Made by a program: the position numbers and the translations under genes
The notes under the pieces: generated by a model
What the model was told of the DNA's origin: nothing
Seen by the model: the letters and a program-made list of their open reading frames with translations, nothing else
Databases searched by the model: none
Shown: positions 2,866-41,053 of the stretch, piece after piece
Numbering within the stretch: position 1 is the stretch's first letter
How the letters are laid out: the number at the start of each line of letters is the position of its first letter
DNA from: Flectonema sp. DT1601
Taxonomy: Eukaryota
Reading direction: 5' to 3'
Length of the DNA: 64,000 nucleotides
Assembly (NCBI GenBank): GCA_964019425.1
Contig: OZ025794.1
Span: 1,240,001-1,304,000, forward strand

Positions 2866-3653
2866 ATGGGTACTGACGTATTAGAAAATGCCATCTACGC
2901 TGAATGTGGTGATAAAGTCTCTTCCGAACAGGTTGCGGACACGGAGGCAGCTGTAGACGAAAATGAATCGAACCTCGATGAGTTTATGGACATGTTGATT
3001 CTAATTGTAATCCTCATATCAATGATTGTTTGGTATCTTAGAGACGCACAAAACAAACGTCAATTTGCAAAAGAAAGAGAAGCAATGAGAAAATTACGAG
3101 CGAAGATGACGATCCCTCCAAGAGACGACTGGACAGTCGCAGAACTACAATCATACACTGGAGGACCAGAAGATGACCCGGAACCGATTCTATTCGCTGC
3201 TAAAGGTTGTGTTTATAATGTCTGGCGTGGGAGACACTTCTACGGATGTGAAGGAGCATATCACTGTTTTGCAGGTCGTGATGCAACCACTATGCTCGCT
3301 CTTGAACTTCTTGATGAGCCTACACAAGAACAACAAGACCGACCACTTACAAGAGAAGAAATCAACTTTTTAAACACCTGGATATCAACTTATGAATGGA
3401 AATATGACAACCTTGGAAGCCTAGCTCCAGGTGAGGGGATCTGGGAAAAGGAACCCGAAAAACGAAAACTTTGGGACGAATATGGTGTGTTACTTTTGCG
3501 TTTTTTCATTTGAGAAAAAAAAAAAAAAAAAAATCAATCAAGGAACAAAAAAAAACAGCAAAACAATACACTCCGAGTGCAGTCACTGCTGTTATTGCAA
3601 TTGCTACGGCTACTGGTGTGATTAAACAGGAAGAGATATCTGTTAGTGAGTGA
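2866..3653 (+). CDS. Membrane-associated cytochrome b5-like heme/steroid-binding protein (MAPR/PGRMC family); exons 2866-3484, 3559-3653
   Basis: N-terminal TM helix, then WTVAELQSYTG...KGCVYNVWRGRHFYG..GAYHCFAGRDAT. ATG 2866 follows a pyrimidine tract and AG at 2854. Removing 3485-3558 joins the 2821 and 3471 ORFs in frame (DEYAKQYTP). Confidence 0.85.
3485..3558 (+). other. GT-AG intron, 74 nt
   Basis: GTGTGT...AAAAAAAAACAG; splicing restores the frame. Confidence 0.75.
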
Positions 3654-3995
3654 CACCTCACAAAGTATCATTAAACCTTCCTAAACGCTGCATCCTTTCT
3701 GTTACTGCAGTTGGCGTTCTGATCTCATTTATTACAAACTGATGAGTCAAAACGAATTTATTTTAATTTTTTTTATTGTTTGTTTTGGTCACTATCGATG
3801 TTTAATTGTTTCCTGGCAGACAGCGTGTCCCACCCTTACTAACACGCGATAACTCTTCCAGTTTTTGTAAATTTGAAAATATATTTTTTAAATCTCTTTA
3901 TCTATCTATTCAGGTTCGCTATTATTATCATTACTGAGTGAACACTTGTGAGAAGTAACGGCTACGATGGATACAATTATCTTCTCAGAACATTA

Positions 3996-5357
3996 ATGAC
4001 TTCCACTTACAATAATGATATCCAATCAAGCAGCAACATCCTCGTAATTGGACCTTCCCTCAGCGGTAAGTCCTCTTTCATTCGAACAGCCGTAGAACAA
4101 CAAAAGAAACCTCTTTATGAACTTACTCCAACTGCAATATACGAAACAAAATTCGCCAACGGCGACAGATGTTTATCACCAGGAACAAAGTTATCAGGGG
4201 GAGTAATGCTCATTAGGCATATTGATGTTCTTTTAGAAGATAAGGAACTTTGGGTTCAATTTAATAAAATACTCTCATCAGAGAATCGAACTTGGGCTAT
4301 TGCTTGTACAGCTAAAAGGAAGGAAGTAATTCCGAAGACTATTCTGCAAAAGTTTAATTCTGTTGTGGAAATGCAAATGCCTGATGCTAAGGAGAGATTG
4401 AACTTTTTAAAAACGACAACAGCAACAACATCAGCAGACCTCTCTCTCTCCGAACTGGAATCCATGGCCAACAGATTAGGAGGAGTTGGGTATGGGGATC
4501 TACGAAGTATCCATCAGCATCGATCTGATTCTGTTCCCTGGTCAGTGATAACATCATCAACGTGTTCTATAATGTCACGTCAATACAACATATCGACACC
4601 TCATGTTGTTTGGAATGACATAATCGGTCACACTAACGCAAAACAATCAATCAAAACAGCGTTATCAATTCATTCATTACCACCTGATGTGCTTTCAAAC
4701 TTCGCATTATCACCATGTACTGGTATCCTCTTATATGGTCTTCCTGGTAATGGAAAGACTATGCTTGCGAAGGTGATAGCGACTGAATTACAAAGTGGAT
4801 TTTTATTAGTTTCTATTCCAAGTTTAGTTAAGAGTTATGTAGGAGAGAGTGAGGAAGCTGTCAGGAATTTGTTTAAAGCTGCAAAACAGAATTCTCCTTG
4901 CTGTATCTTTCTTGATGAGGTACAGGCGATATTCGGTGACAGACAAGACTCTCATGGAACTGATCACGACTCAAGACTTGTCTCGCAATTATTAGCAGAG
5001 ATGGATAATCTTCCTTCTTCTGTTACAGTTATCGCAGCGACTAATGTTCCGTCAGCTTTGGACTCTTCAATCCTCTCCCCAGGTAGGCTAGATATGCATA
5101 TTCATGTGAGACCTCCGACTATTTCAGAGCGTATAAAATACATTTCAACATTCCTCCCAACCCATGCTGATGAAATAGGAAATCTAACGGCAGGGTATTC
5201 GTATGCTGACTTGACTGCTCTTAAAAATATTATTCAAATCAACCTCCCTGATGATGATGATGATGAAGACTTTGATATATCGTCTGTAATGTCTTTAACA
5301 CACCCATCTTACTCAAATGATGAGTTGAGTTCAGTTGAGAATTGGATAGCTAGATGA
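3996..5357 (+). CDS. CDC48/AFG2-like AAA+ ATPase (degenerate D1, intact D2)
   Basis: GPSLSGKS in D1. D2 has GILLYGLPGNGKT, Walker B IFLDE, VIAATN and PGRLD. First in-frame ATG is 3996. Confidence 0.85.
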   Translation: MTSTYNNDIQSSSNILVIGPSLSGKSSFIRTAVEQQKKPLYELTPTAIYETKFANGDRCLSPGTKLSGGVMLIRHIDVLLEDKELWVQFNKILSSENRTWAIACTAKRKEVIPKTILQKFNSVVEMQMPDAKERLNFLKTTTATTSADLSLSELESMANRLGGVGYGDLRSIHQHRSDSVPWSVITSSTCSIMSRQYNISTPHVVWNDIIGHTNAKQSIKTALSIHSLPPDVLSNFALSPCTGILLYGLPGNGKTMLAKVIATELQSGFLLVSIPSLVKSYVGESEEAVRNLFKAAKQNSPCCIFLDEVQAIFGDRQDSHGTDHDSRLVSQLLAEMDNLPSSVTVIAATNVPSALDSSILSPGRLDMHIHVRPPTISERIKYISTFLPTHADEIGNLTAGYSYADLTALKNIIQINLPDDDDDEDFDISSVMSLTHPSYSNDELSSVENWIAR

Positions 5358-5591
5358 TCAAAATGATTCATAATAAAGTAACTAACTGATACGGTGATCC
5401 CAAAGAGGACTTTAATGTGTTGACAACGATCCTGATCAAGAAAGTGATTTCTTTGCATTTTATAGATTGCAATAATATTATGTGTTGTGTGTTGTGGAGA
5501 TTAAATTAAGAATCATCCATCTCTTCCTTTCCCTAATCAGTAATACATACCATGAGGTAATATAAAAAAAAAAACAAAACAAACAAAAGAC

Positions 5592-7004: not shown

Positions 7005-7845
7005 TGTTGGTGCGGTAGTAGAGCTTCTCTCAATTTACATCGAGTGAAAAAAAACCTGGCAGAGTGAACTGGAATGAGCAAGGGAAAAACAATAAATATT
7101 CTGGTCAGAAAAGCAGTTTTTTTTTTTTTTTTAAATTTAGTTGCCTTCGAACGCTGTACCTTAGAAGTTGATTTCCTTGGGAAGCTTTCACTGCGATATG
7201 ACTACCTGAATGTTAATCGCAAGCAAATAATTTAAAAAAAAAAAAAAAAAAGAATTGGAAGCCAACTTCACTTTTTACTCAGCACTTGTGTTGTTTGTGC
7301 GCAGCCGTCACAAAATCCTATAAACGAGTTGGTTAGTAACGCTAATACAGTTCTCTTTATACTGAACAATATACAAAACAAACAAACAACAACAACACCA
7401 TAGAATACAATGGGCTCACTCATCTTCTTCTTAACGAGGACTGTCGGGTATCTATCTGTAGTTCGGTACTCACGCGGACTGATTTAGACCTGAGCCACTT
7501 TCACTTTCTGTTGTAGAGATTTCTTCCCTTTCTGGTTATTATTATTATGTGTTCTATTCTTTTTATTTTCCACATCCCTTTCCCTCCCCTTTTTCATTCA
7601 TCCCAGTTAATTAAACCTGTGATTTGGTTTTATTCATAAAACTGAAATACCAAAGGAGGAAATAATATTTTTATTGCCCCCCAAACAGGAATGATCCGTG
7701 GCTTTGTTGTTGTGTTATCGCATAAATTATTTCTTAAAAAGAAAAATAATTTTTTTTTCATTCTTCACCAGATATAAAGCAAAAAAAAAAAAAAAAAAAA
7801 AAGGAACGGGAGAAACAAAAAACCCAAATCCGCAACACTAAATTA

Positions 7846-10645
7846 ATGTCTCGTTACAATGCAGGAGGGATGACTTCTCCAGCAGCTTATCCTCCGAATG
7901 GGTCGGTGAGATCGTTTTCTCACTCACCTGGACCGATGAGTCCTCCACCAGTTGGAAGTGGAGGTCGTGGTATTCTACCTGATAGTTGGCCTCATGATCA
8001 AGGACTGATTAGTAGTTCTTTAGGAAGACAGAGTCCTCCTCAAGTTATTGACAGTGAGTACGCAAAGGTTCAGGCAGAACGTGCATCATTAGAAGTTCAA
8101 CTACACAGCGCTGACACCCGTCTTCGTGAAGCCAGTACTAGAGAAACTTGTCTCGTTAATCAACTTCAGAGAGAAAGATCTCAACACACTCAAACAGTTC
8201 AGGTCTTTTTAGATACTTTTAGGGAACTTTGTTCTTCTACTATTATCCCACAGGCAGTTCCAACTCCAGAAAAGGCGACTACACTCTCTGTGTCAGTTAT
8301 CAATGAGTTGAATAACAACCTTCAGGATAGTGACTTGGCTGCAGACTCTGCTCGTGTTGCCGTAAAGAAGGTCGAAGAACTGACTGTTGCAATCCGTGAC
8401 AGGGATATTTGTATTGCAACTTTAGAGCACAAAATAGCACAGCAACGTGACTTTGATTCACAGAAGGCTGCAGCAGTAGAACAACAAATTCAAATACTTC
8501 TTCAGACGGTCAACTCAAAGAGTGACACATCATTCGTTGCAGAACCTTCTCAAAGAACAGGTGAGAATATTGATGATTCTCTTTTGAACTGGGTCGACAC
8601 TTCGAATAACACACTTCCTAAGGAGTCTCCAATTGAACCAACTCCGCAGCCGCTGATGTCACCTGCGCGTGAACGGTCTCCTTACAACTCTCACCCACGG
8701 CAGATTAAAACACCTGCTTATGCAACCAACTCGAAAAACAACAATCCAACTCCCGTTACTCATGGTGATCGTGAAGGTGACTGGCCTGGATCTCCTCGTC
8801 GTGAAGTAGAAGAGACTCTTAATCAAACCCTTCCAGAGGAATTCCCTCCTTCACCAAGAAGACAAGTTCCTAATGAACAACCAGAACATGGTAAAGACTG
8901 GAGAATGGCTGGAGAGGAATGGCCACCAAGTCCAAGAAGAGTCGACACCGAGTCGTACCCTTCACCTGATCGTCTTCGTGAGACTTCAACAATGGAACCA
9001 AAGAATTGGGGAAATGACACTGAAGAATGGCCTCCATCACCACAGCGAGTGAGGGAATCACAGACTGAAGAACGCCAACAGCCAACAGCAACAGCAGCAG
9101 GTTCAGAATGGCCTCCATCACCACAAAGAGTTAGAGGAGCACCTGAACCTGAAGAGGCAATAACAGCTGGTGAGGAATGGCCACCTTCTCCTCAAAGACA
9201 TCGTGAACCTGTTGAGGAAACCTGTCCAGCTCCAACATACGCTGAGGAGAACAAAGAGTGGCCACCATCGCCTCAACGTCAGCGTGGGGGTGCTCCACCA
9301 GCCCAAGAAGGAGAGGCCAAGGAGTGGCCACCTTCACCACAGAGACAACGTGGTGTGGCTCCGAGTGAACAAAATGAAACGAATGAAAACTGGCAACCCA
9401 GCCCAAGGCGTGAAAGGAATGCCGACACTGAGACGTACGCTAATGGAGCACCAAAGGTTAACAATTCAAATAACACCTGTGATCCGGATACACCAGTTCA
9501 GGTTTGTTTTATTTATTTAACTAAACAGAAAAATTAACAACAAATAATCTTATCCAACCAACACTAGGCTGTGAACATCACTCAAACACCATCCTCAGCT
9601 ACCGAGCCAACAGCTACTCCCGTAGAAGATGTGTGTACACACCTTTTGTTATTTTTAACATCATATGATTTTATTTTTATCAACCTTATCGTTTTTTTAT
9701 TTATTTGATGTGACACTCCAGTGGAGTTGAGTAAAGTTATCCTTAATTTTAAGTTTTTTAAAAATAAAATAAAAAAAACAGGCTTCTCAAAACACGATTT
9801 CTCCGCAGAGATTGGAATGGCCAGCAACGTCAAGCCCAAAGGAAAAGTTAGACCGTTCAGCTTCTGGTGAGTTAGGTGATCGCAGAAGATCTGTTGGATT
9901 CGCAGGAGTTCCAGAACACGACCATCATGGTAATATTTTATTATCTGCTGCAAAGAAAAAGATTGCATTGCTTGAGAGAGAGGTGTCAAGTTTGAAAGGA
10001 GAACCACCAATGACTAGAGACCTTCTCGAATGGGCCGAAAGAACCTTCGCTGACGTCGACTCTCTTTGTCAAAAAGATGGTTCGATCTCAAAAGAAGAAC
10101 TTGGTAGAGTTCTCGGTGAGGAAAGATTGGCAGCTAAAATCTTATTTCACGAACTCGATGAAAACCATTCAGGTGAGATCGACGTAGAGGAATGGATTCA
10201 CTGGTTTGAGAGACTAAACCGTAAAGATGGAGCTGGTAACATGCTTCAATGGATTGAAGAAAGATTAGACACAACAAAAAAGACCAAAAAAATTGGATTT
10301 TCAGTCGAGTCGACTGTCACATTAGAACCTGACGTCGAAGCAAGAATTGGAGCAGCCTTTGACGTAACTGTTGGTCTCCTAGAGAAAGATGGACCTGCAA
10401 CAGCCTTCTTCAAAAGTCATTTAGAAGAAAAGTGGGGACCACTTCCTCACCTTCAAGAAAACCAAGACGGAGCTGTAAGATGCTCTGAGTGGTTAGCATG
10501 GTTTGAAGGAGTCCAACGTCATGGTCAAAGTGCTGAGGAATTAATTTCCTGGGTGGAGAGTAAACTTCAATGTGCTACTGATGAAGAAAAAACGAAACAA
10601 ACTCCAACATCAGAAACCCCTTCCGCAACTGAAGAGGAGGAATAG
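7846..10645 (+). CDS. Coiled-coil / EWPPSPQR-repeat / EF-hand protein; exons 7846-9501, 9568-9630, 9782-10645
   Basis: Two phase-0 introns join the 563-aa and 277-aa ORFs through a 63-nt exon. EF-hands DSLCQKDGSISKEE and DENHSGEIDVEEW. Confidence 0.8.
9502..9567 (+). other. GT-AG intron, 66 nt
   Basis: GTTTGT...CCAACCAACACTAG; contains the stop of the upstream ORF. Confidence 0.7.
9631..9781 (+). other. GT-AG intron, 151 nt
   Basis: GTGTGT...AAATAAAAAAAACAG; the next exon is in frame with ORF 9812. Confidence 0.75.
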
Positions 10646-13224: not shown

Positions 13225-13479
13225 AATAACCGGAAGTCAACACTGAGCGCAGCGCATTGAAGAGCTGCTGATCGTGTTACGGTAAGACTGACTTACTCTC
13301 GATATGATCACATTTGTCTGATCAGTTTTTTTTTTGTTTTGTTTTTTTTAAACATTCAATTTTAACTTCAATTTAACAGAACACTCCACCATGTTACATG
13401 ATAGCAGCAGACACACTTGATTAATCTGTTTTTATATGTCTCTTCCAACAGGTTTTTCTTTCTTAAATATATAATTCCA

Positions 13480-15106: not shown

Positions 15107-16530
15107 ATGGGTGACGACTTACAAAGATCTCTTAATGACAGGATGATGAAAATGAGGGCTCAGGCTCTTAGAGGAAGGAGTGGTGGAGGACTCAGTGGAG
15201 GGAATGTTGTTAGAAACACGAGCACTCCATCTACGAATTTTCAAGCATCGATACCGACAGAGAATCCTTCACGAAGCGGATCAATATACGGAGGGAGTAC
15301 CCAAGGAACAAATTATACACCCGGGCAGGTGAATGCGAACCAGCCACCCATTAATCCACATAGCATGTTTAACAATGGTCCTGGAGGTGCACCTGTTGCG
15401 ACGAATAACACTAACGTGAATTCTCATAATAATACGTCGTCTGTGAGTAATACCAAAAGTAACAACAATAACAGTAGCAGCAACAACAACGAATCTGATG
15501 ATGATGGAGCTCAAAAACTTAGAGAAAAATTAAGAGAAATGGGAATTAACGACACTGTTGCCCCCCTTTCACAAGGTATTTATTTAGAGTTTTTTGATTT
15601 ACTAATAAAGTTCATGAAATTTAAAAAATAAAAAATAATTAAAAAAAACCAGTTGAAGCAACGACAACGGTTGTTAGAAGCGCACCTAAGTTGGATGTTT
15701 CTGATCGAAGGAGTTTTCTTGGACATGCACCTCCAAAGTATGTCATCTTAGAGTGGTTTGGTCTTGTCAATTTATTCAAAAAAAAAAGAAAAAAAAAAAA
15801 AAACAGAGTTGGAATGGTCTATTGTCACATCATACGTGATCGTTCGGGATTAAAAAAATTACACCCGGAATATAACTTGTACCTTGAAGTGCCTGGTGAA
15901 GATCCGTTCTTTTTACTCGCAGCTCGTAAAAGAAAAAAGAACAAAAGTAGTAACTACCTTATCTCAATGGATCCGGAAGATTTGAATCGTTATTCTGGAA
16001 ACTTTTATGGAAAAGTCAGATCGAATTTCTTAGGAACTGAGTACACGATTTATGACAAAGGAGAGAAGGGTTCTAAAGGAGGTGGACTATCACTTCGTCA
16101 AGAGCTGGGAGCAGTGCTATACGAAACTAACATCGTAGGCAGTAAAGGACCTCGAAGAATGATCGCTGTCATACCGTCGGTAGACTCTACCGGAAAGCGT
16201 TCAGCATGGAAACCAACAATCGAAGATGGTGAGTCTCTCATCAATGCTTACAAAGCAAAGGATCGAAAAGATGATATGATTATTCTTGAAAATAAAAAGC
16301 CAAACTGGAATGAAGAGCTTCGCGCGTATATATTAGATTTCAAGGGACGAGTGACTGTCCCAAGTGTTAAAAACTTTCAACTTGTAGAGCGTCATACCGA
16401 AAAAGTTTTGGTTCAATTTGGAAAGATCGCCTCGGATAAATTTACCCTCGATTTCCAACATCCCGTAAACGGTCTTCAAGCTTTCAGCCAAGCACTCACA
16501 GCTCTGGATAATAAATTAGCTTGTGAATAG
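15107..16530 (+). CDS. Tubby-like protein; exons 15107-15575, 15653-15737, 15807-16530
   Basis: FLLAARKRKK.KSSNYLIS, GKVRSNFLGTEYTIYD, GPRRM, SVKNFQL and C-terminal KLACE. Both introns keep the frame. Confidence 0.93.
15576..15652 (+). other. GT-AG intron, 77 nt
   Basis: GTATTT...AAAAAAAACCAG; joins ORFs 15107 and 15691. Confidence 0.8.
15738..15806 (+). other. GT-AG intron, 69 nt (3n, no stop)
   Basis: GTATGT...poly-A CAG; removal deletes a spurious poly-Lys run and gives HAPPKVGMVYC. Confidence 0.8.
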
Positions 16531-17255: not shown

Positions 17256-18337
17256 CGTGATTGGCTTGTTTTCTTTCTTCTTCCCTGTCTAATCGCAAAG
17301 ACTCTCTAATCGCTGACAAGAGCTTTTTTTTCCTTTTTTTTTTTTTTTCTTTCTGTCAGAGCATTTCAGAATGAAGCTGTGTGGTCTTTTCTTTTTTTCT
17401 TCCTTCCCTTTCCACGTTCGTTCTGCTCTTCTGTTGGGGGAGATAAAACGGAGTCTGCATATTTTGCGCACATCGGAATGGATTCGCTCTGTTTGGCTTT
17501 TGTTTGTTTTGTTTAGAGAGAGTGTTGCATGATAGGATGCAACAAGAGATTTTTCTTTTTTTTATAAAAAAAAAGCTCAGTTTTGCTATTTATAATACCA
17601 TAATCGTGCGCTGCTATTACTTGTGGTGGAGAATGTTTTGTTCTTTGTTGTGTGTAAGAAAAAAAATCTTTAAAGTGAAAAGAAAAACGAATTAAAAAAA
17701 AAAAAAAAAAACTTCCATTTTTCCCCATAGCCTGCAATTTGTTACTGTCCTTCTCGACGGCTTCTGCCTCCATTTACAGCAACAGCAGTAGTCATATGCT
17801 AGCCTTTTTGTCAGGGGGAGGGGTGTATCCTCCCGTCGAAATTATTTTATTGTCTTTCGTTGAATTTTGTAAATTGCTGACAGTTTCAGCTGATCTTATT
17901 ACCCAACCCCCCCCTCTTCCCAATTCGCGTTTTGTTTTTTTTTAAATATTTTTTTTTCCCTCCACTAATATCTAAAGCAAACGTCATAACTACTTTGAAA
18001 CTGTAACAGGATAAAGTAATAGAGAGTGGAGTCTTCCGGACAGTAGGGTGACAGTGATCATAAATACCATTCACATAGGTGTTTATGTGTTAGTTCTCAA
18101 CTTAATTTCTTCCCCGAAGAGATTGAGTGAGAGGTGTTAGTCAAAACTAACCTTTCGATTTATTAATTAAACTGAATTGATTATTTATTTACTTATTTGC
18201 GATTCCTAATTACTATTAAAGACGAATACTAACTTTCTCTCTCTCAGTAGTATAAGATTAACGACCTGAAATTATTATGTTAGTAATCTGCACCTTTTGT
18301 TTACTTTCATACTATTCTTTCTCTCAGGGAGGGTGAC

Positions 18338-21300
18338 ATGAATCAGTCTGATGACAGTCCTCATCAGAACCCCCCTCGCACAGATGAGGATGCTGCCGAG
18401 AGACTCGAAAAGGCGGCTTCATTAATTCAGGCGAAAAAAGAGAAGTTAAATCTTCAATATGGGCTCATGAAGGCAGCACAGATGGCTACAAAGGCACCAA
18501 GGGAAGAGACTCTTGAAGACAAAATAAAGGAAAAGCTACCTGGAGGACAGACAAGCGAGCTACTAACTGATCTTGTGGGTTACTTAGGTAGAGTAGACTC
18601 ACTCTGTGAATGTGATAATAAAGGTGTTATAAAACACATTCAAAACTGGGCTGAAAACAAATTACAAGTTCAAACTGAATCGACTGAATTAGGTCTTGGG
18701 CTCGGACTCGGAATCGGAATCGGATTAGGAGGATTAGAATTAGGTGATGATTTCGGACTTGTTTGTGGAAGTCACGATCCACTTTTAGAAGCCACACTTG
18801 AAGAACACAATAAAAACAATGCAGCAGAAGCTGCTCTGGATCCCAACCATCTCGACTGCTGGAATGGCATTGGATGTACTTCTGAAGCAGTCACAGAAAA
18901 CATTCGAGGCATTGGTAACGATGGTGAACTTGTATTCGCTCTTCCTGGTGACACTACTCAATTCGTAAGAGTAGATGCCCCAGCACTACATGAGTACGTC
19001 ACACTTGTTTTATTATCAGACATTGGTGAAATCTTATCGTGGAACGAGTCTATGAAAAAGGTCACTGGAGTAGAAGCTAATTCAGCATTAGGAAATGACT
19101 TCTCTGCTTTCTTACTATCGGAAAAGGATCAAGAGGAATTCCAAGACGTCCTAAACGGTGATGCCGCAAAACGAAGACGGATTTACGGAATAACAAAATC
19201 TGACGGAGTCAACATTGCATACATTGAAATGCAATTTGTTGAAGCTTCTGCTGGGGCATCAAACGATAAAGTAATTCTTTGTATTGGAAGATCTCGTAAT
19301 AAACTTGAAGCAACTCTAACATACAGTACATGGGTCCTCGAACAGATTGAAGCAATGTTGTTTTGTAGCACTTCTTCTGATAATGAAGACACCAGACGTC
19401 TACTTAATATGATTCAACAATCTCGTGATATCGATCCATCTGATTGGGGTCCGTTGAGTACAAAACTAACATTCAATAAACTAGTCGCTGATTACAGAGA
19501 CGACTTAGAGGGAAGTGGTGACCGAAATATTGAAATTACATTAAACTTTGATGAGAAGGTACCTGATGAAATCCACACAGATCTTCTTAGGTTTCCAAAC
19601 ACAGTCGCGTATATTGTAAACAATGCAGTCAGATGTAGCCCTAATGGTGGACAAGTATGTATTGGTGTTTATCACGACAGACACGGTGATGAATCAATGG
19701 GTACTCTTAGGGTAACAGTCACAGATGAAGGAAATGGTATCCATGAAAACGTTCTTGATGCAGTCAGATCAATGTCCGCAGATGAGGACGCCCCAGGTAG
19801 AAATTTAAGAAACAGCAGACTGGTCATTCAAGAACTTGGTGGTGACATTACTTTCGAAAGAGGTACTGCTACTGCTTTAAAAAAACGAAGACAAGCAGCG
19901 ACTTCAATCGCTTGCGGAGTTCCAATCAGAGAAGACACTGTCGGAACTACTGCAACTATTATTATTCCTTGGTTACCTCCAACTAATCAGTGTGCTGCTT
20001 CAGGTTTACATAGACCTTTTACAATTAATAAGAATCTCAATCGTGGGGTTAAGAAGGTCAGCAAGTTACAAAACGATCTACAAAACGCTAAAGATGCTCT
20101 TGAGAAGAGGGGTGTTGTATCGATGATAAAGTCACTCGTTGTAGAGTCCAATGTAGTTCATAGGATGGCGTTTTGTCATCATCTGTGGGAACGTTCCCAC
20201 GCTCTCAGTCTCGCAAATAATATTTCAGAAATAAAATCGCATCTTCAGTCGGTTGATATTATTGTAATCGCAATCGAGGAGACGCACGTCAGCATCAAAA
20301 AACTTCTCTCCGAACTGAGTACTCTCGACATCCAAGTGATTCTCGCATCTCGATTCTTCACACCAATGCAAATTCGAGAGATTGAAAACGCTAATTGGTT
20401 TGGTGTCTCCCTCCCTATTCAGAAACGAGAGTTTTTAGAGGCGTTAGATCACGTATGTACTTATTAATGAAGTCTTTTGTTTGTGTTGGTTGCTTCGTCG
20501 GTACAAAAAAAAAAAACAACAACAACAGGTGGAACTAGCGGTATTAAAAAAACTCGAAGCACAAAAACATATCGAAGACGTGAGGAAAGCATTTGGGGGA
20601 AGGTATAAAAAAAAAATCACATCATTTTTTTTTTTCTTCTTAACATTTTTTTCAGTTTTTTTCATATAACAAAAAAAAAAAAAAAATAAAACAGTAAAAT
20701 TCCTTGGGAACGAGGCCGTCTACTCGGTAAGGGTGCCTTTGGAAAGGTATTCGAAGCAAAAAGTGCCGTCACTGGAGGCACTATGGCTGTCAAGTGTATT
20801 GAGAGACTGGAAGGAGGCAGCGCCCAAGAAGAGGCGATTTACGGAGAAGTAAAAATGATGTCAGAATTATCTCATCCAAACATAATTCATTATTTTTATA
20901 GTGAGCTAACTGAGAGTGAATTATTAATATTTATGGAGCTAGCATCGGAGGGTTCTCTTGAGAGTAAAATCCCACCTGGAGGAATGGACGAAAGTACTGT
21001 TGCTGAGTACATGGAAGGAATCCTAAAGGGACTCCAATACCTTCACAGCAAAGACATCGCCCACAGAGATATAAAAACAGGTAATGTTTTAATCAGCAAC
21101 GGAACACCAAAATTAACTGATTTTGGAACCGCAACCAAAATAAAAGAAAAGCAAACCCTCAACGAGGAAGCAGATAACACAGCAGGAACCCCATCATATA
21201 TGGCACCTGAAGTATGGAATGGAATAGACAGCGGTAACCTGGCTGATATTTGGGCACTTGGATGTCTACTAATGGAAGCATCAACAAAACAATTACCATT

Positions 21301-21919
21301 CTTTCACAGAGGTGGTACAATGGTGTCAGTTATGACTTACATTCCACTACTAAAGCCAACTGATACAGTCGACATTGGACATAATGAAAATAATTATGGT
21401 CCTGCAGTACTTGACTTCATAAGACAATGTCTTGTCGTTGATATGACAGCTCGCCCTACTTGTGAAGAATTATTGCAGTCCAGGCTACTCGGAGAATGTG
21501 ATCAGATTATGAATAGAAAGGCTACTGTTGCTAAATTATCTCTCATTTCGAGAGGGGAATCAATGAGGGGAAGTTATAGTAGAAGAAGGATACCAATAAA
21601 GACAGCTCAGCCTGTTGTATCTGAGCCTCCTGATTGGGACTGTTCTGAAGCTTCTTCTCCAGCCACAACCCCTCGTAATAATAAAATCTGCACCCCTCCT
21701 CAGACAAGAAGTAGGGCACACACTACTATATCTCGTGGTAGCACTACTTCTCATATTTCTTGCGAGCCGGTTGATTTATCTTCGACTCATGCATTTAAGT
21801 CGTTTGTTACTACTCGTCCTCCAGCTCCACGGAAGTCTGATCTCTACTCACCTTCGCTTTTGAATAGGCAAATACCACATGCTCAGTCATTTATTCATTT
21901 GAGACATCCAATAAGTTGA
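18338..21919 (+). CDS. PAS - HATPase-like - pseudo-receiver - STE11/MEKK-type Ser/Thr kinase fusion; exons 18338-20452, 20529-20602, 20695-21919
   Basis: PAS (GEILSWNESMKKVTG..ALG), N-box IVNNAVR, G1 VTDEGNGI and receiver-like SLVVESN..HR. After splicing: WERGRLLGKGAFGKV, MAVK, HRDIKTGN, DFG, APE. Confidence 0.85.
20453..20528 (+). other. GT-AG intron, 76 nt
   Basis: GTATGT...AAAAAAAAAAACAACAACAACAG. Confidence 0.8.
20603..20694 (+). other. GT-AG intron, 92 nt
   Basis: GTATAA...poly-A TAAAACAG; restores the kinase Gly-rich loop in frame. Confidence 0.8.
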
Positions 21920-24890: not shown

Positions 24891-24922
24891 GTGATAAAGT
24901 GATAAAGTGATAAAGTGATAAA
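24891..24922 (+). repeat. Tandem repeat (GTGATAAA)x4
   Basis: Directly visible, about 50 nt upstream of the cyclin ATG. Confidence 0.9.
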
Positions 24923-24974
24923 GTATACCTCACTTGTATTCTTTCTTTTAATTTCCATTCCAACAGATCAAATA

Positions 24975-30175: not shown

Positions 30176-31654
30176 ATGACCTACAAACCGAATAGCCTTC
30201 CGAGTTTAGATATCTGGTCGACATCATGTCGAGTGGGAACTTTATATTTTTGTGAAATAGTTCAGTTGCTGGTAGTGATCGTGATGAGTGGGTTTTCATT
30301 TGGAGTTGGAGGATGTGGAGGAGCAGTCGTCGGGATGTGTCTCTATACAGCAGTGCAGTCTGTACCTGCAGGTTTACCTGGTGCGCTTGACGTACTGTGC
30401 GCTCAGTTGTGGGAGTCAGACCCAAGCAGTCCGGTTCCAGCGTTATTTTTAAGAAGGTGTTTGGTTATGGGATTCTTTGTTTCATTAGTAGTCGTTCTTC
30501 CTTTTGCATTCATCACCCCATCGTTTATTGCGTATACCATTCTGGGACACCAACCAACGACGTTGTCATCTGAAAACGAAGATCACATTGCCATCGCAAA
30601 TTACGCTGCAAATCTTCTTCAGTCTTTATGGATATTATTACCGTTTCAGGGAATCGAGGAGTCCCTTCGAAGGTTTTTACTTGCCCGTGATGAAGGTCGA
30701 GAACAAACACTTTCAATACTGACTTCTTGGTCAGTGTTTGTGACTGTCATCCATGGTGGTCTCTCTTATACTTTAATTCCAATTAATAAAGGATTAGGAG
30801 TGACAATGACTTACATGGTTACAACAGTCTTTAATATAATTGTCTACTTTTCAATCATATTAACCACATCTGATAGGAGTGGTAATTCAATGCTTCTAAA
30901 GGGTGGTGGATTTATTCCACACAGAAATGGAGGTGGTGATAGGGGTTACCAGTCTATATCAAGACTGTGTATCCCTGGCATCATTGGAATCGCTTTGGTC
31001 AGAATCCCTTTTGAGATTAGCCCCCTGGCTGCTAGTTGGTTGGTACCAAGTAGGATTATATTTCAGGGGATTACAATGTGTATTTTTAAACTTTGTTATT
31101 CGCTGCCTTTGGTTGTGTCTCAAGCGATAACACTGACAGCAGGTAGAGCCCTTAGTTGTAATGACACTGATAGGGCAAAAGGTGTAGTCAGATCTGGGCT
31201 TTTGTTCGGATTATTAATTGGACCTTTCATGGGTCTTATTTTTATAGCGAGTCATACAGTGGTACTGAAGATTCTTGGGATTCGTCAAGAGAGTGGAGCA
31301 GCAAGTAGTGCTGCATGCTTTGCAGTCATAGACACATTCCATTCGTGTTGTGTTGGGATTCTCAGAGGTACTTCTTCTGTTTCCCATTCGGCTGATTCTT
31401 CTAGAAGGCTTGTGTCGTATATACAGGCGATTCCCTTCATTATTATATATCCTATTGCCTTATTTCATTTTCCTCAGTTTGGCATTGGCGCTCATTGGGG
31501 TGGTCTTGCTGTTGCCCAAGCTGTCAATACAGCAATCTTGTTGGTAGACATTCGTCGGATTCCCTGGGCTGAGATGACCGGTTTCGACTTGATGTCAGAA
31601 TACACTCCCTTGAACCCAATTAGGAAAAGTGGCAGGATAACACCATCGGGATGA
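30176..31654 (+). CDS. MATE-family (multidrug and toxin extrusion) transporter, divergent
   Basis: Many TM segments; GLPGALDVLCAQ, VSQAITLTAGRALS, GILRGT and FGIGAHWGGL. Start codon uncertain. Confidence 0.75.
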   Translation: MTYKPNSLPSLDIWSTSCRVGTLYFCEIVQLLVVIVMSGFSFGVGGCGGAVVGMCLYTAVQSVPAGLPGALDVLCAQLWESDPSSPVPALFLRRCLVMGFFVSLVVVLPFAFITPSFIAYTILGHQPTTLSSENEDHIAIANYAANLLQSLWILLPFQGIEESLRRFLLARDEGREQTLSILTSWSVFVTVIHGGLSYTLIPINKGLGVTMTYMVTTVFNIIVYFSIILTTSDRSGNSMLLKGGGFIPHRNGGGDRGYQSISRLCIPGIIGIALVRIPFEISPLAASWLVPSRIIFQGITMCIFKLCYSLPLVVSQAITLTAGRALSCNDTDRAKGVVRSGLLFGLLIGPFMGLIFIASHTVVLKILGIRQESGAASSAACFAVIDTFHSCCVGILRGTSSVSHSADSSRRLVSYIQAIPFIIIYPIALFHFPQFGIGAHWGGLAVAQAVNTAILLVDIRRIPWAEMTGFDLMSEYTPLNPIRKSGRITPSG

Positions 31655-31821
31655 GTACCTTTTTTTTTCTTTTTTGTCGTTTTTTTTTAAAGTTTGTAAT
31701 CCGTACTGCCTGATTTGCAGATAATATTTTAAAGTTTAGAAAAATAATTAGCAAAACCTTTCTTTTTTGATATGAGACAACGAAAATAAAAAAATCCATT
31801 TACAACATCAGTAACACGACC

Positions 31822-33614
31822 ATGAATGACGAAGGCAATGAAGTGCTAAGTGATAGGGAAGCAGATATTAACGTTGACTACATGAAAATGACTTCAACGC
31901 CGAAGGTGATCGAGGACGCTCTAGCAGCGTTAGTAAAAACAAAACCCAATGACGTGGATGAGTATTTAGCTGAATACTTTGCTGGTAGAGTTAAGGAAAA
32001 GAACAACTTATCAAGAAAAGGTTCTGAAACCTCTCGAATCAAACAAGTTGAAAATCAACTTCAATACAGCAAAGAGAGAATTAATGACCTCGAAGGTCAG
32101 ATTAGTGAATTAAAAAAAGCAAGTTGCACACAAACAAAGAAATACCGTGTTATATCAGCTCGTGCTTGCGCTGTTTGCGCACGAGAAGACCGTCCGGGAG
32201 AGGTTCGCGCCAAAGGATTTAAATGCCGAGAATGTGTTGGTCTTCCAAGCAATCCTCTTCTTATCAGAATGGTTGACAAACAAGGAGCCATTACTAAAGG
32301 TAAAAGTGAAGATGGTGAATTCGTATTTAATGATTATGTTATTAAAAAGAACCTTCTTGGTGAGGGAGCTTTTGGAAAAGTCCGACACTGCTACCATCTT
32401 GGCAGCCCTCATCAAATGTATGCCGTTAAGACTCTTCCTATTGCCCAGTTGAAAACTCATCGTCTCAGACGAGGTGTTACAGTCTCTCGCAGACAATCAA
32501 CAGGAGGATCTAACCCCGACTCCATAGCAACTGCAAGAGATGAAAATCTTCGCCGTTGCAAGGAAGAGGTTGAGATTATGAGGCGTCTCAGCCACCCAAA
32601 CATTGTTCAGGTATGGAAAATATTTTTTCTGTGTCAAAATTTAGCTATTTTTTTTCTTCTTTTTTAATACAACAAACCCAAACACAGATTATTGACTCGA
32701 TGGAATCAGAAACAGAACTTATGATCGTAATGGAATACTTAGAGGGAGGCCAGATATTTCCTGACCAAGGCGGCGCTCCTATCCCAGCAGTAAAACTTCA
32801 AAAATACGCCTGCGCGATTGCGAGAGGTCTCGACTACTTACACTCGAATGGAGTAATTCACAGAGACATAAAGCCTGGTAATATCTTATTGGATAAACAT
32901 GACAATGTTAAATTAGCTGATTTCGGTGTGTCAGCTGAAACGAACGATAGCTTCAGAGTGTTCGGTTTTATCGGAACACCAAAATATATGTGTCCCGAAG
33001 CATTCGACAACGCATCGACAAAAGGTTTGTCAGGAGTAGCAATTGACGTTTGGGCCTTTGGAGTTACGCTGTTCACGATGGCTTTTGGTAAGAATCCTGG
33101 ATGGTCGGGATCAACGTTAACTGACTTAGGAGATAGCATCGCAAATGTGAAACTTGATTTGAATCATGAAAACGAACAACTTAACGACATAGTAAGTAGA
33201 ATGCTTGATCGTAATCCAAGTACGAGAATATCAATAGAAAATGTACTCAAGCATCCTTTTCTCGCATCTATCAGAGTTTTAAAAGGTCATCCTGTAGAGA
33301 CTCTGACTCTAAACGCTGAGTGGGATGAATCTAATAAAGCTTTACAACTTAATGAGGGAGCTGGCTTTAATGAAGTTCGTTCATTCTTTGCGAGTAGTTC
33401 TACGAAATTTCAAATTACACTTGGCAATACCTATTCAATGACTATGTACGATACAAGAAGAGATCCTCGTCTAACACGCAATGCTCACCCTGAACCTGTC
33501 GACCCGTTAGAACACAGTACTCTTCTAGCCCAACGAGAACGTGTTAACTACCAAGAAGGTTGGATAACACCTGATAGCGATACTGAAGAAGATGAAGTGA
33601 CACCTTTTGCTTAA
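31822..33614 (+). CDS. CaMKK-like Ser/Thr kinase with N-terminal RIIa/Dpy-30-like, coiled-coil and CxxC..CxxC modules; exons 31822-32610, 32688-33614
   Basis: LGEGAFGKV, YAVK, HPNIVQ|IIDSME, HRDIKPGN, DFG, GTPKYMCPE and DVWAFG. Confidence 0.88.
32611..32687 (+). other. GT-AG intron, 77 nt
   Basis: GTATGG...ACAACAAACCCAAACACAG; joins the two kinase halves. Confidence 0.85.
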
Positions 33615-36134
33615 AATATTAAATTAAGTTGTCGTCGTTGATCTCCGAATTGAACGCCCTTTACGCATTCCACTTTGCAGTCGAATTCTCTTAAGGGATT
33701 ATCCCTGTTGTTCAATGAACGTAGGGTACTATATCATTTCATTTCATTTCACTTTTTTTTTCCCGTCTTTTTTTTGCCTACTACCACCCGCAAAAACAAG
33801 TGTCTCAGTAAAGTACTGCTCTTTATCGTGCGTGGTTCCATTAGTCTTGTGCTGGTGCATTTGAAACATTTGGACAAATCTCTGTGTGGATTCGTTTTGG
33901 GCAGTTCACCTGTTGTATACATAGCATTTGGGGAAAAAAAAAAAACATATCTCTCGCTTTAATTGTAGTGACTGTTGCAAAACTCTGTTGTGTGGGGGTT
34001 TTGTTGTTATTCATTTATTCACTATTTATTTATTATTGTCTTTTATTTTTTTTTGTTTTTTCCACTGGCTGATATTTCACCACCATTAATACATTCGCTG
34101 CATAATGTGCTGCTCCTATTAAAATGACAAGTAATTTCCGTGTGTGTTTTTTTCCCATTGCCTCGATTGTCGGCATGAAGCTTTACGTTTTTGCGTAGTT
34201 ATTGGTTCTGGGTTAGAAGGGGAAGAAGAAAAAAAAAAAAAAAAAAAAAAAAACGGTTATGAGGAGCGTGGATAAAATTACCGCATTTTGTTTCGAATAG
34301 TAGAGAACCAGACACACACTTTCTCGTTAGTGCAATGTCGAGTTACAGTATGATACAAAAATAATAATAATAATAAATTTAAGAAAAAGGAAAAAAAAAA
34401 AAAAAAGATCAGTGGGTGTGAATGTTCCGCGGGATCTCACCTGCAGGAAACTGAACTGAAAAAGAACAGCCTTATTCGTGCTCATAGGGAGAATTTAAAA
34501 AAAAAGATTCTCATGTTTGTTTTGTTCTGAGTCGGTTTCACCCCAACCCTCCACCCACCCACAGCATGTCTTATCAAAACATCGATAAACTGAAGTATGT
34601 TTGATTTAGTTATAAAATACCATTTTCCCCCTTCATTTTCTTTTTTAAAAAAAATCTATTACCCATCCAAAAGATTATTTCTTCGTTCGCGCTAAATTAC
34701 AACATTACCAGTTCATACTCGGTGTTGAAAAAAAAAAAAAATAAAAAGAAAGAAAGGGATTATTGCAAAAAAAAATTAACATTTCATGTTATTTCTTTTT
34801 TTTTTTTTTAATGCTTAGTTTCTTCTAAAATACAGCCTATCATCATCATTACACTTTGGGGTGATCTTAACCTTTAAAATGATACAATTCTCTGCCCGCC
34901 CTCCCACCCACCCATGAATGTTTTGATAAGTAAGGTTATATTTCACAAAAAAAAAAAAAAAAATGGAGGTGGCATTTCAAGATCAATGCGAAAACGCTTG
35001 ATGATGAAATCATTTTGTTGCAAAAAATCTATAATTATAATTCTTAAAAGCTGCAAAGCCTACGGGGCGTGGCCATGGTTCTCTCATATTAATTAATATT
35101 GAGTGACCGTTATTTGATTTCCTTGCAGTTAATTGATTATTCATTTATTTGTGGTAACTAACTGCTATTGTCCCTAGAAGTTAAGAGGGACTGAAACTAC
35201 GTATTGCACAGCGTTTTTAGAATAATTGTGCTTTTTATTATTTTTTTTTATTTTGATTTAGTGCTCAATATTCTAACTGTTGTTATGGATAATACTAACT
35301 AACCTTTCCTGTGTGGGTGGAGCGATTTTTATGTTGTAAAAAAGAAAAATTAAAATTTATGGTGTCTGCAATGCGAGATACTGACGAAAATTTTTCCCAA
35401 CCAAGAAAAAAAAAAAAAATTCTTTCCTTTTTTTTCTTTGTTTCCCCTCCGGTCTTAGTGATGCATTGGACATTGCTTGATACTATTGGGAAGGAAAAAA
35501 AAAAAAACTTTGAAAAGTTTTTGAGAAGGAAAAATTCATCAAAAAAGGAAAAGAAAAAGAGGAGAAGAAAAGGATTCATTCATGAGATACTAGTTTTAGT
35601 TGGTTGTGACGTCCTTTTCGTCTCACCGTTGTTAAGCCCAGAAGTGAGATTCCTTGTGGGATTCGTTTCTCTACTTGACGTCTTGATATCTACTTTCCCA
35701 ATTTCTTTTTTATCATTAGTAGCAAAGCTGTAGCTGTGTTAACTCAGGAGAGACTCTTTTCTTATCATTTTTTGACAACGATTCCGTGCTTTTCTCTCTG
35801 TTTTGTCGTCCCCATCCGCGTGTTGGTTATGATTTAGTATTAATTTCCTGTTTTCTCGTTTCCCGTTTTTTGATCCGAATAGTTCTCTACATCAATATAT
35901 TGATATTAGGATTTACTTAGCACCCACTCATTCTGTTGGTACTCCCGTTTATCCCCGAAAACCAAAACTATTTGTTTGATGTCCTTTACGATTTAATGAT
36001 TTGATTTTTTTTTTTTTTTTTTTGGGAAAACCCCTAATTCCACAAAAATAGTTTGCGAAATCGCCAACTCATCACAAAAATTTTAACCGCTCGAAACAAC
36101 CCAACATGACGGGAAAATTTTCAGAATTTTTTGA

Positions 36135-36213
36135 GCTCCGGTGGTCTACTGGTTATGACCGCCGAATCATGACCCGGAGGTCTCGGGTTCGAACCCCGTG
36201 ACATCCTTTTTTT
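36135..36213 (+). pseudogene. tRNA-like unit (CAT at the anticodon position) with A/B boxes and T7 terminator
   Basis: A box TGGTCTACTGG 36142-36152 and B box GGTTCGAACCC 36186-36196. D and T arms pair; acceptor and anticodon stems do not pair properly. Confidence 0.75.
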
Positions 36214-36450
36214 CTCTTTTTCGTAATGACGGAAAATGAGACCAAAACATAGTCAAAGGGCGGATTGATCACCCACTGGTCGAGTTGAGACATATTCCCG
36301 TTGCAATAAATCACCAAGACCCCTCCCGTGTGATCGATCACTTTAAAATGTTACTGTGCAGTTCACCAGTGAGACTAAGACCTCCAACCAAAATTCACCA
36401 GACTTCAAGTTCCAAATTAGGTAATTTTTGTTAGGCATATTCGAACCATC

Positions 36451-36505
36451 GACAACAGAAATTCTCACGTTAGTAAAAGCCTTTAGAAATGTGGCTTAAC
36501 GATCC
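36451..36505 (+). pseudogene. Condensed LSU rRNA domain V fragment, sense on +
   Basis: ACAGAAATTCTCACGT / GTAAAAGC / GAAATGTGGCTTAACGATCC are three collinear pieces resembling conserved LSU sequence, with the spacers deleted. Confidence 0.55.
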
Positions 36506-36544
36506 TCATCATCGATTTAGGTTCGTGACTCAGAAGCCTTCGTC

Positions 36545-36937
36545 ATGTGGCCCTCCTCCCAGCCAAACTCCCAACATGACTGGTGTCTCCAAACGAGGGG
36601 TCGAGCCGAAGCCCGTTTGTCGCCGGAATCGGAAAAGCCACGAGTCCGAAAGGACCGTAACCTCCGAAGAGGCAGCTGCCGTTCCCCCATCATTGGATAA
36701 GTAAAGCGACGATAAGAGTAGTGGTATTTCATTGTTGGTAAACCTCCCACCTATAACTACACCCGACTAGAGTCAAACTCAACAGGGTCTTCTTTCCCCG
36801 CTGACAGTTTCAAGTCCGTTCCCTTGACTGCTGTTCGCCAGATAGTAGGTAGGGGCAGAAGGAATCTCATTGGTCCATTCATGCGCGTCTTTAATTAGAA
36901 GACGAGGCATTTGGCTACCTACCGAGAGTCATCAGTT
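36545..36937 (-). pseudogene. LSU (28S-type) rRNA fragment, approx. helices 69-80, degenerate
   Basis: Minus strand reads GGTAGCCAAATGCCTCGTCTTCTAATTAAAGACGCGCATGAATGG...CAGCGGGGAAAGAAGACCCTGTTGAGTTTGACTCTAGT...TGAAATACCACTACTC...GGGAGTTTGGCTGGG, with an internal deletion and substitutions. Confidence 0.92.
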
Positions 36938-37007
36938 GCAAATTTGTTTTTTCTGGTTGGACTTTGTACGGGACAGGCGGGCTTTTATTAGGGCTCCCCC
37001 CCTTGGG

Positions 37008-37052
37008 GGGGGGCTTGCGTCCCGCCAAGAATTTGGCGGACGCAAGCCCCCC
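37008..37052. other. 20-bp GC-rich hairpin (one bulge, 4-nt loop)
   Basis: GGGGGGCTTGCGTCCCGCCAA-GAAT-TTGGCGGACGCAAGCCCCCC. Confidence 0.9.
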
Positions 37053-37064
37053 TTGCACTCTTCC

Positions 37065-37148
37065 CAGCTTAGTAGGCTAAAAAACAAAAAACCCGCCGCA
37101 AGCCAAATTTTTGGGTCAAGTTCGAGTCCTGGTGGACAACTTTTTTTT
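37065..37148 (+). promoter_or_regulatory. Second, more degenerate tRNA-like Pol III unit
   Basis: A-box-like CAGCTTAGTAGG 37065-37076, B-box-like AGTTCGAGTCC 37119-37129 and T8 at 37141-37148. Confidence 0.5.
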
Positions 37149-37308
37149 GTAGGGAGTTGGCGATTTCGCAAACTATTTTTGTTGAATTAGAGGTTTTCCC
37201 TTTTTTTTTTGTAATTTTTTTTAAACAAAAAAAAAAAATTACCCAAAATAAGAAAATACGTGTTTTTTTTGCTATGCCGATTTTTTCAACATCAGCATAG
37301 TAAAAAAA

Positions 37309-37440
37309 AAAAAACCATTCAGATTAGCCTTATATTTCATTGAACGCAGACAAAATCCTGTTGCATGGGGAAAATAAATCACGGCCATTAGAAATATCAG
37401 TTTTCAATCTGAATAGTTTCTTCTCCGACTACGTCGGTAC
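37309..37440 (-). mobile_element. Family A element, copy 2 (inverted relative to copy 1)
   Basis: Reverse complement matches 24345-24470 except for a few substitutions and a 6-nt indel. Confidence 0.8.
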
Positions 37441-39203: not shown

Positions 39204-39222
39204 AAGTCAACGAGAAAGAATC

Positions 39223-39254
<32 letters not shown>

Positions 39255-39437
39255 CATAATTCCAACACGTAAGGTAATTATTGTCCACCACTCACTCATC
39301 TATTGTGAGTTGTCAGGTTTTTTAAAAAGTTCATTATTATTATTATTATTATTACCTGCATTCTTTCTGAGAATAATTTAAAACACATTCTTCACAAGGT
39401 CATTACTATACACTAATTATACAGGACTACAGGTGAT

Positions 39438-41053
39438 ATGTTGCTGCACATCCCTCCGGATTTGTCCGGAGATGCTTCTGAGGATGGGAGACTTATTGGA
39501 AGGTATGTTTTGTTGTTGTACTTTGATAGTGTGTCAGCCAGTACAAAGCAGCATCATATAAAAACACGCACAGAGCCAGCAAGACATCATCAAGAAGATT
39601 GAGTGATTTAAAAAGAGTTGGGATTCCAGGGGGAGGATCGTCATTGTCGCCTCCTACAGAAGACGACCTCGCTCATATTTCAATGGAGGCTATGAAATGG
39701 GCAGAAGTCAGAACGACGGTTTCATCAAAGGCTAAAGAGATTGGCGCAGATGCTAATACGGAATCGGGTTCAAAAACAAACGAGCCTCAAGTTTCTGAAG
39801 AGTGGTACTTAGCTCCACAACAAGTCCTTCCAATGCCAATCCCTTCAAGTTCTGGATTGTCATTACTACTGAGTGGGGATAGGAACCCGGGATATGGAAG
39901 GACTCGGTTTATGAATTTAAAAATATTTTGTCCATTCATACAACCAACTCCACCTGGAAGGATGTCTCCCGTAACAGTTACGGTACCTGACCATGCAAAT
40001 GTTAGTGAGGTGGTTAGGGCGTGTTTGAGAGTGTTGAGAGAAGAAAATCCTGACTTACACATCAATCTAAACCCTGACGCATATCGACTTCGGGTAGCTG
40101 AAGATGAGACTGGCAGACCTGATGAAGACCTTCCCGTCTTAGATAGGAAAACAAGTTTTCGAAAGATGGGGATTGATACCTTAGTATTATCCCTGACAGC
40201 TACTAGTCAGTTATCAGCTGGTTTTGAATCACCTCAACGTTGCAATACGTACGAAGATATTTTCATTAAAGTTTTATATGGCAGTGAACGAAAACGACAC
40301 CGAAGAGTAACCCTTCCACCAGATGCTTTATTCAAGGACTCTCTTGCATTGATATGTGAAAGGTTAAAGAAAGATACTTCAAAATACACGGTAAAACTAA
40401 TTCTCGATGGCATTGAAAAGGATGCTTTAGGTGATGACTACATACCAGTTGGTGAACGTACCCTTGGAACTTTACACAGACACTTTGGTGTCAGGGAAAT
40501 ATACCTGAAATCAAAAGGTAAGGAAGATGAGGATGCTGAGTCAGACAGCTCAGCTGATGTTCCGAAAACACGTGCTGCAATGTTCTGTGATTGGGATGAA
40601 GCCAGTGCTTCTAGATACACTGAATATCACGTAATTAAGATTAACAAATTCGGATCTAGACAACCTCGTACACTCGGAATTGATCGTGAAAAGATATACA
40701 ACATGATGAGAGGTACAAAAGGTCAAAAAACTAGAAACCCAGAGAGATCGCTCAGTGATATTATTTTCATTCGAACGTTTGATGATAAACCAAATTATTT
40801 TGAAATCGAATATAAAAATAGTAAATCTGGAAAAGATCAAATTGAATGTCAATCTCCGATGGAGGCTCATGAGATATCAACAAAAGTTCGATTTCTTCTT
40901 GAGCTTCATAAGAAAATGCAATCTGCACAAACGTCATTACAACCAGAGAAGAAGACTTCCCTCCTCCCTATGGTCGGAATGGATAAACTGCTAGCTAAGA
41001 TAACACCTCAAGTACTACACTCACCAAGGGGAGAGAGGTCCAAGGAATACTGA
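39438..41053 (+). CDS. SIN1/Avo1-like TORC2 subunit (CRIM and PH domains); exons 39438-39502, 39574-41053
   Basis: CRIM-like NPDAYRLRVAEDETGRPDEDLPVLDR and PH-like YHVIKINKFGSRQPRTLGID. An upstream ATG exon splices in frame. Confidence 0.75.
39503..39573 (+). other. GT-AG intron, 71 nt
   Basis: GTATGT...ATAAAAACACGCACAG; supplies an ATG to the TTG-started ORF 39599. Confidence 0.75.

Follow-up and report, generated by a model that had tools for sequence, protein, structure and literature searches.

A-rich acceptors of nine inferred introns in a Flectonema-like diplonemid, and their contrast with AGs upstream of start codons

Gene content and affiliation of the window

We analysed a 64,000-nucleotide (nt) stretch of contig OZ025794.1 (assembly GCA_964019425.1), hereafter the window, for the composition of its candidate 3′ splice sites. 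Two classes were compared: the acceptors of nine introns inferred within genes, and the AGs upstream of start codons, at some of which a spliced leader could be added in trans. All nine intron acceptors follow an A- or A/C-rich tract. Judged from the DNA, the upstream AGs are clearly not A-rich and are only mildly pyrimidine-rich, and a code based on composition is unproven.

The window is AT-rich eukaryotic DNA. Its plus strand carries 29 of the 36 open reading frames (ORFs) of at least 120 amino acids (aa) and every ORF of at least 150 aa; the remaining seven are on the minus strand, each shorter than 150 aa. Within the window this is a unidirectional gene cluster. The aspartic protease encoded at 23145 shares 91% identity, and the C-terminal part of a tubby protein 85% identity, with transcriptome-derived proteins of Flectonema neradi, and the next named matches of tubby and the named matches of SIN1 come from other diplonemids. 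Given this, we assign the DNA to a diplonemid, a marine protist, that is near, yet distinct from, F. neradi. Exact look-up returned a Flectonema member for two of ten window proteins and, in another look-up, for none of ten. A metagenome scan with the F. neradi tubby protein P0131 detected a single distant locus (47% identity). Diplonema papillatum has unidirectional gene clusters and adds a spliced leader to essentially all mRNAs (PMC10161547). The initial annotation of the window had presumed a polycistronic, leader-adding euglenozoan, and a diplonemid with a one-strand gene cluster is such a setting. For the comparisons below we used 23 modelled genes, taking the first ATG of each ORF as the start; only three starts (15107, 23145 and 39438) have homology support.

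Nine inferred introns

Introns were modelled from reading frames and homologues. We recovered nine GT-YAG introns (Y, pyrimidine), with the count, sizes and end points of the initial annotation: all are on the plus strand between 3485 and 39573, measure 66-151 nt and total 753 nt. Eight end in CAG and one in TAG. The donors are mostly GTRTG (R, purine), as had been claimed (6 of 9, including GTATG in four), and the remaining three are GTTTG, GTATT and GTATA. Removal of the nine introns restores six frames of 237, 860, 425, 1137, 571 and 514 aa, the five longer of which run to the stop of the downstream ORF. Support independent of composition exists for five introns: both in the tubby gene, those in SIN1 and in the kinase gene at 31822, and intron 7. 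A composition-blind rule, which keeps the donor fixed and accepts the earliest in-frame YAG from 30 nt past it onwards, selects the chosen acceptor in eight of the nine, SIN1 being the exception.

The tubby gene contains intron 4 (15576..15652, 77 nt, GTATT...CAG), at which the frame switch agrees with the transcriptome-derived F. neradi orthologue P0131, and intron 5 (15738..15806, 69 nt, GTATG...CAG), which is in frame and coincides with a 24-residue gap in the alignment with P0131. In the protein kinase gene at 31822, intron 8 (32611..32687, 77 nt, GTATG...CAG) yields the 571-aa frame, and the Pfam kinase domain runs on across the frame change (39-75, then 62-263). Upstream of intron 9 (39503..39573, 71 nt, GTATG...CAG), exon 1 of SIN1 matches, in a different frame, the N-terminal ends of orthologues from diplonemids. 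Either 39573 or 39579, both A/C-rich, fits the orthologue spacing as the SIN1 acceptor, while the U-rich alternative at 39537, nearer the donor, would add 12 residues in conflict with that spacing. A public protein collection contains intron-blind pieces of such split genes, for example a 238-aa tubby protein (window positions 15814-16530) and the two parts of the kinase at 31822.

Introns 6 (20453..20528, 76 nt, GTATG...CAG) and 7 (20603..20694, 92 nt, GTATA...CAG) lie in one gene, and their removal gives the 1137-aa frame. The acceptor of intron 6 is the sole in-frame AG within 230 nt. A Pfam kinase match starts seven codons into the ORF at 20690, ahead of the first ATG of that ORF (20783), so an upstream coding exon is required. 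The spliced product (18338-21919) is a fusion of PAS, a histidine-kinase-like ATPase (HATPase), a probable receiver region and a Ser/Thr kinase. A homologue search with the PAS/HATPase protein returned only itself, and the Atlas gave only bacterial histidine kinases, with no full-length homologue.

The other three introns fall in two genes. Intron 1 (3485..3558, 74 nt, GTGTG...CAG), in a cytochrome b5-like gene, extends the product from 215 aa unspliced to 237 aa and uses the first in-frame YAG; it is the weakest model of the nine. In an EF-hand-containing gene, intron 2 (9502..9567, 66 nt, GTTTG...TAG) takes out an in-frame stop and scores as non-coding (-9.8 bits). Intron 3 (9631..9781, 151 nt, GTGTG...CAG) restores the frame at the first in-frame YAG, with a donor position that has no independent fix. 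With introns 2 and 3 removed, the 860-aa frame ends at 10645.

When the 23 genes were scanned for coding potential, no other in-frame GT-YAG segment resembled the pair of in-frame controls (-10.3 and -9.8 bits, 66-69 nt); the lowest of the rest scored -8.4 bits over 153 nt and lies within a MATE match. An in-frame intron with a U/C-rich end had been suspected at about 1339-1444, but the segment scores as coding. In intergenic DNA, additional introns of the GTATG...A-rich type gave no signal (6 of 19 sense versus 3 of 13 antisense).

Composition of the cis acceptors

We defined the acceptor tract as the 15 nt preceding the YAG, and as A/C-rich if A+C was at least 0.8. All nine intron tracts reach this value with U at or below 0.2, as do 37 of 530 intergenic plus-strand YAGs for A+C. 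The description of the cis tracts as A- or A/C-rich followed by YAG thus holds throughout. The mean intron tract is 0.75 A, 0.08 U and 0.23 pyrimidine. This richness exceeds chance, also for the five introns with composition-independent support alone. U falls from 0.51 at intron positions of about 6-25 to 0.08 ahead of the AG, indicating that the loss of U is local to the acceptor; over their final 15-25 bases the introns are A/C-rich with hardly any U. Skipped internal YAGs are U-richer than the chosen acceptors (8 sites, p = 6e-4 for A+C).

These introns lack the polypyrimidine tract that adjoins the acceptor of U2-type introns. The same is true of introns of D. japonicum, which are nevertheless classed as canonical (PMC12621601). 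No consensus branch motif is evident: CTAAC is absent from the 753 intron bases, CTRAY occurs once and YTRAY 11 times. In diplonemids, YTRAY was reported in only 2-16% of introns (PMC12621601). Nor do the introns resemble the nonconventional, structured introns of euglenozoans, as all nine are GT-AG and have no stable end pairing. Predicted folding energies range from -2.7 to -21.1 kcal/mol, with z scores of -1.67 to +0.83 against dinucleotide shuffles for all nine (intron 6 was folded 2 nt short), and the terminal A-stretch is unpaired in most fold models.

In RNA-seq-mapped introns of D. japonicum, A outnumbers every other base in the "polypyrimidine tract", donors are G/GTATG and the introns end in CAG (Thakur et al. 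2025, PMC12621601), and a weak A in the tract was also described for Lacrimia lanifica and Rhynchopus humris (PMC12621601). The window introns are similar in being GT-AG with GTATG-type donors and CAG ends and in having A as the commonest base before the CAG. They differ in size, as the median in D. japonicum is 41 nt. We conclude that the A-rich acceptor is a genuine trait, described before in this group, and that the window extends the trait to a Flectonema-like species.

AGs upstream of start codons

The p values given for upstream AGs come from several tests and are uncorrected. For the nearest upstream YAG of the 23 genes, mean pyrimidine content over 15 nt was 0.62, compared with 0.54 for other intergenic YAGs (p = 0.03). 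At the three homology-supported starts, the values were 0.60, 0.67 and 0.40. When the best-pyrimidine YAG within 150 nt of each ATG was taken, genes did no better than random intergenic segments (at least 0.73 in 12 of 23, null 43%, p = 0.26); the corresponding test on mean pyrimidine gave p = 0.06. In both tests one gene start was set at 30225 instead of 30176.

A mild pyrimidine signal near start codons does survive controls. Within 150 nt upstream of ATGs, pyrimidine content ahead of YAG was 0.587 versus 0.507 ahead of the control triplet YAH (p = 2e-4), with p of 0.004-0.005 at 60 and 100 nt; far from ATGs there was no excess at YAG (0.531 versus 0.539). Pyrimidine-rich intergenic YAGs are strand-biased (sense 54 of 530, antisense 13 of 515). 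A/C-rich ones show no sense enrichment (37 of 530 versus 54 of 515), and only 2 of the 89 YAGs within 150 nt upstream of starts are A/C-rich, as is one of the 23 nearest YAGs (at 41980). Leader sites, if they are among those 89 YAGs, are therefore unlike the cis acceptors. The canonical CTAAC branch motif was sought before upstream AGs and rejected (20 sense, 21 antisense).

The initial annotation listed six AGs preceded by U/C tracts. All six tracts exist, with pyrimidine contents of 0.67-1.0, but they had been picked from 23 genes and two are not the YAG nearest to the start. As candidate leader acceptors on the plus strand, these are 2837..2854 (TAG, 1.0, 11 nt before ATG 2866), 5523..5540 (CAG, 0.87, 51 nt before ATG 5592), 13434..13451 (0.67, before ATG 13480), 24949..24966 (0.67, before ATG 24975), 46551..46568 (0.8, 109 nt before ATG 46678, with five YAGs nearer the ATG) and 52970..52987 (0.73, 63 nt before ATG 53051, with another YAG nearer). 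In the fifth, the G falls on 46568, not on 46569 as had been given. We add two candidates, both pyrimidine tracts (0.87) followed by CAG on the same strand: 7754..7771, the nearest YAG to ATG 7846, and 18310..18327, 10 nt before ATG 18338. A plus-strand counter-example is 39415..39432, the nearest YAG to the homology-supported SIN1 start, with 0.40 pyrimidine and 0.47 A.

Both acceptor types occur together in one 5′ region, at 41872-41983, where a U-rich CAG (41872) is followed by a short exon and by a GTATG...A/C-rich TAG segment abutting the ATG of a polycystin-like gene. The segment (41889..41980, plus strand, 92 nt) may be a 5′ untranslated region (UTR) intron.

The compositional contrast between intron acceptors and upstream AGs that had been proposed is therefore real in that the upstream AGs are not A-rich. 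The intron acceptors account for almost the whole of it, however, as the upstream AGs differ only slightly from the U-rich intergenic background. Neither tract is sufficient alone, because a U-rich CAG inside intron 7 (20655) is skipped and A-rich YAGs are not sense-enriched outside genes.

Other features of the window

An ORF-free gap contains a degenerate fragment of eukaryotic large subunit (LSU) rRNA (36067-37300, E = 7e-34) on the minus strand, opposite to the gene cluster. On the plus strand at about 36139-36205 we noted a tRNA-like stretch by eye, which was not called by ARAGORN. A 15-nt word has three intergenic plus-strand copies (6944, 17216 and 45862) with flanks that look alike by eye, possibly remnants of a small RNA; at two mismatches it has four matches versus 1.63 expected, and four or more occurred in 6 of 100 shuffles. 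An intergenic duplication of about 120 nt with small changes links ~45200-45330 and 45690-45810, and a short tandem array with an 8-nt unit (24892-24925) lies upstream of a cyclin gene. UG-rich intergenic words are strongly sense-biased, beyond most pyrimidine words (TGTGT 67 versus 17, TGTGTG 27 versus 2) and may represent 3′ UTR or processing signals. Between genes, at 7403-7487, an A/C-rich TAG precedes an ATG with a frame of 25 codons, perhaps marking a small gene or exon that our models missed.

Comparison with other trans-splicing systems

We found no report of a cis/trans acceptor contrast in diplonemids in the literature covered, which did not include most subscription papers or the supplements of PMC10161547 and PMC12621601 (these may hold acceptor logos). 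In the text of PMC12621601, the terms "spliced leader" and "outron" are absent and no cis/trans comparison is made. The diplonemid spliceosome is of the U2 type and includes U2AF; U1 and U2 snRNAs have been reported from diplonemids, and U2AF1/2 are present in D. japonicum (PMC12621601).

In Trypanosoma brucei, the leader acceptor is marked by a polypyrimidine tract, which also determines polyadenylation upstream; trans-splicing suffers when purines are inserted into the tract, and the branch can form at any A that lies upstream of it (PMC9639853). The window shares with T. brucei the polycistronic layout, a pyrimidine tract before candidate leader acceptors and the lack of an evident branch-point consensus, but its tracts before genes are weak. 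Kinetoplastids have three intron-bearing genes, with intron pyrimidine tracts at no fixed position (PMC11613528). In Schistosoma mansoni, trans-splicing at intron acceptors goes with longer and richer tracts (PMC5832876), and in Schistosoma and Ciona acceptors are tipped towards trans-splicing by a weak donor and by a higher pyrimidine or U content (PMC5832876, PMC11155486). Unlike these graded differences, the cis acceptor in the window is wholly without a pyrimidine tract. Euglena gracilis resembles our diplonemid in being a euglenozoan that splices in cis and also adds a leader in trans, and in having an acceptor tract of unusual composition. A comparison of its two acceptor classes showed one C-rich tract for both, whereas in the window the two classes appear to differ.

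Possible explanations for the A-rich acceptors

The explanation we favour, tentatively and at a little less than an even chance, is that U is kept off the cis acceptor so that it would not be read as a signal for leader trans-splicing. A GT donor close by would direct the short intron into cis-splicing, adenosines for branching would come from the A-rich stretch with no set motif, and trans-splicing would be the default for U-rich AGs that have no donor. This would need a single positive signal (U or pyrimidine plus AG) and its avoidance, not two codes that are read separately. Our preference for donor-driven cis-splicing with U avoidance draws on the sister group, where an AG behind a pyrimidine tract prompts both the addition of a leader and polyadenylation further upstream, an effect that purines in the tract weaken (PMC9639853). 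Also in its favour are the A/C-richness of all nine acceptors, the drop in U confined to the acceptor, the scarcity of A/C-rich YAGs near starts, the strand bias of pyrimidine-rich intergenic YAGs, the excess of pyrimidine at YAG over YAH near ATGs and the richer tracts at trans-spliced acceptors in Schistosoma.

Several observations count against avoidance of U. Eight internal YAGs and U-rich 5′ halves persist within the introns, which would not be expected from pure avoidance, and the skipped CAG at 20655 is strongly U-rich (pyrimidine 0.8). The 15 nt ahead of start codons are also A-rich (A 0.49), so A-richness is not confined to acceptors. The nearest upstream YAGs are mildly pyrimidine-rich (at least 0.8 in 4 of 23 and at least 0.6 in 15 of 23), their difference from other intergenic YAGs is not significant at three of four tract lengths (p = 0.15, 0.09 and 0.18 at 10, 20 and 25 nt), and the gap from the last pyrimidine stretch to the AG shows no significant difference between the classes (p = 0.12). 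The sample is nine introns from a single window, four of which (introns 1, 2, 3 and 6) have frame evidence and no homologue support. In addition, some diplonemids, S. specki, L. lanifica and P. papillatum among them, trans-splice yet have C-rich intron ends (PMC12621601), and the cis introns and outrons of E. gracilis share one C-rich tract (Gao et al. 2024, PMC11170887), which together indicate that separation by composition is no general need.

Relaxed constraint unrelated to trans-splicing is possible, although we consider it doubtful. Here the intron would be defined by its donor and a YAG, the acceptor would have drifted to A or would be a degenerate branch region, and the presence of a donor alone would decide between cis and trans. 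Intergenic DNA full of poly-A and poly-T runs, as in a genome prone to A/T homopolymers, would suit such drift, as would the U-rich CAG skipped in intron 7. Tract composition also differs among diplonemids, all of which trans-splice (PMC12621601), and the determinant classically described is whether a donor is present or how strong it is (PMC5832876, PMC11155486). Drift alone, however, cannot account for A rather than U at the 3′ end of all nine introns with U-rich 5′ halves, a pattern that requires some selection on the acceptor region. The proposal of the initial annotation was two positive codes, in which an A/C-binding factor or an altered U2AF would act at cis acceptors and a pyrimidine-binding factor at leader acceptors. 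The almost full separation of the classes (A/C-rich in 9 of 9 versus 1 of 23) speaks for it, as do the choice of A-rich YAGs over the U-richer internal ones and the CA-rich motifs that MEME found in introns of four diplonemids (PMC12621601). We nevertheless regard two codes as unlikely: D. japonicum has ordinary U2AF1/2 (PMC12621601), A/C-rich intergenic YAGs show no sense enrichment, and the skipped YAGs may simply sit upstream of the branch point.

Two further explanations have little in their favour. Pairing of the A-stretch with the U-rich 5′ half could mask the latter and join the intron ends, as in structured euglenozoan introns. The U-rich 5′ and A-rich 3′ halves would allow this, but the introns fold no better than dinucleotide shuffles and the terminal A-stretch is mostly unpaired in the models, so we rejected hairpin masking as very improbable. 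The chance that the introns are artefacts of assembly or inference, through homopolymer frameshifts or acceptors picked for their A-richness, is slimmer still. The assembly is homopolymer-rich and there are the four introns modelled from frames. Against this, transcriptome-derived tubby orthologues lack exactly the stretches in question, the SIN1 exons are joined in orthologues, the composition-blind rule arrives at the same acceptor in eight of nine introns, and the coding-potential scan shows no other segment like the two in-frame controls.

Implications for diplonemid splicing

The A-rich acceptor by itself is already known. How cis acceptors are told from leader acceptors in a polycistronic, intron-rich cell is a question that few lineages face across the whole genome, diplonemids being among them. 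Within the Diplonema/Flectonema lineage, composition before the AG might set its fate, with A/C-rich AGs joined to the upstream exon and U/C-rich AGs receiving the leader and directing upstream polyadenylation; we hold this to be possible but rather unlikely. If fate were set in this way, one spliceosome would be reading two opposite 3′ splice-site signals, unlike the shared tract of Euglena. Should the contrast hold at mapped leader sites, swapping the tracts would be a simple test in a group that includes a transformable species. It would also account for the otherwise unexplained A-rich tracts of D. japonicum, and would improve gene annotation in diplonemids, where genes are often fused or split.

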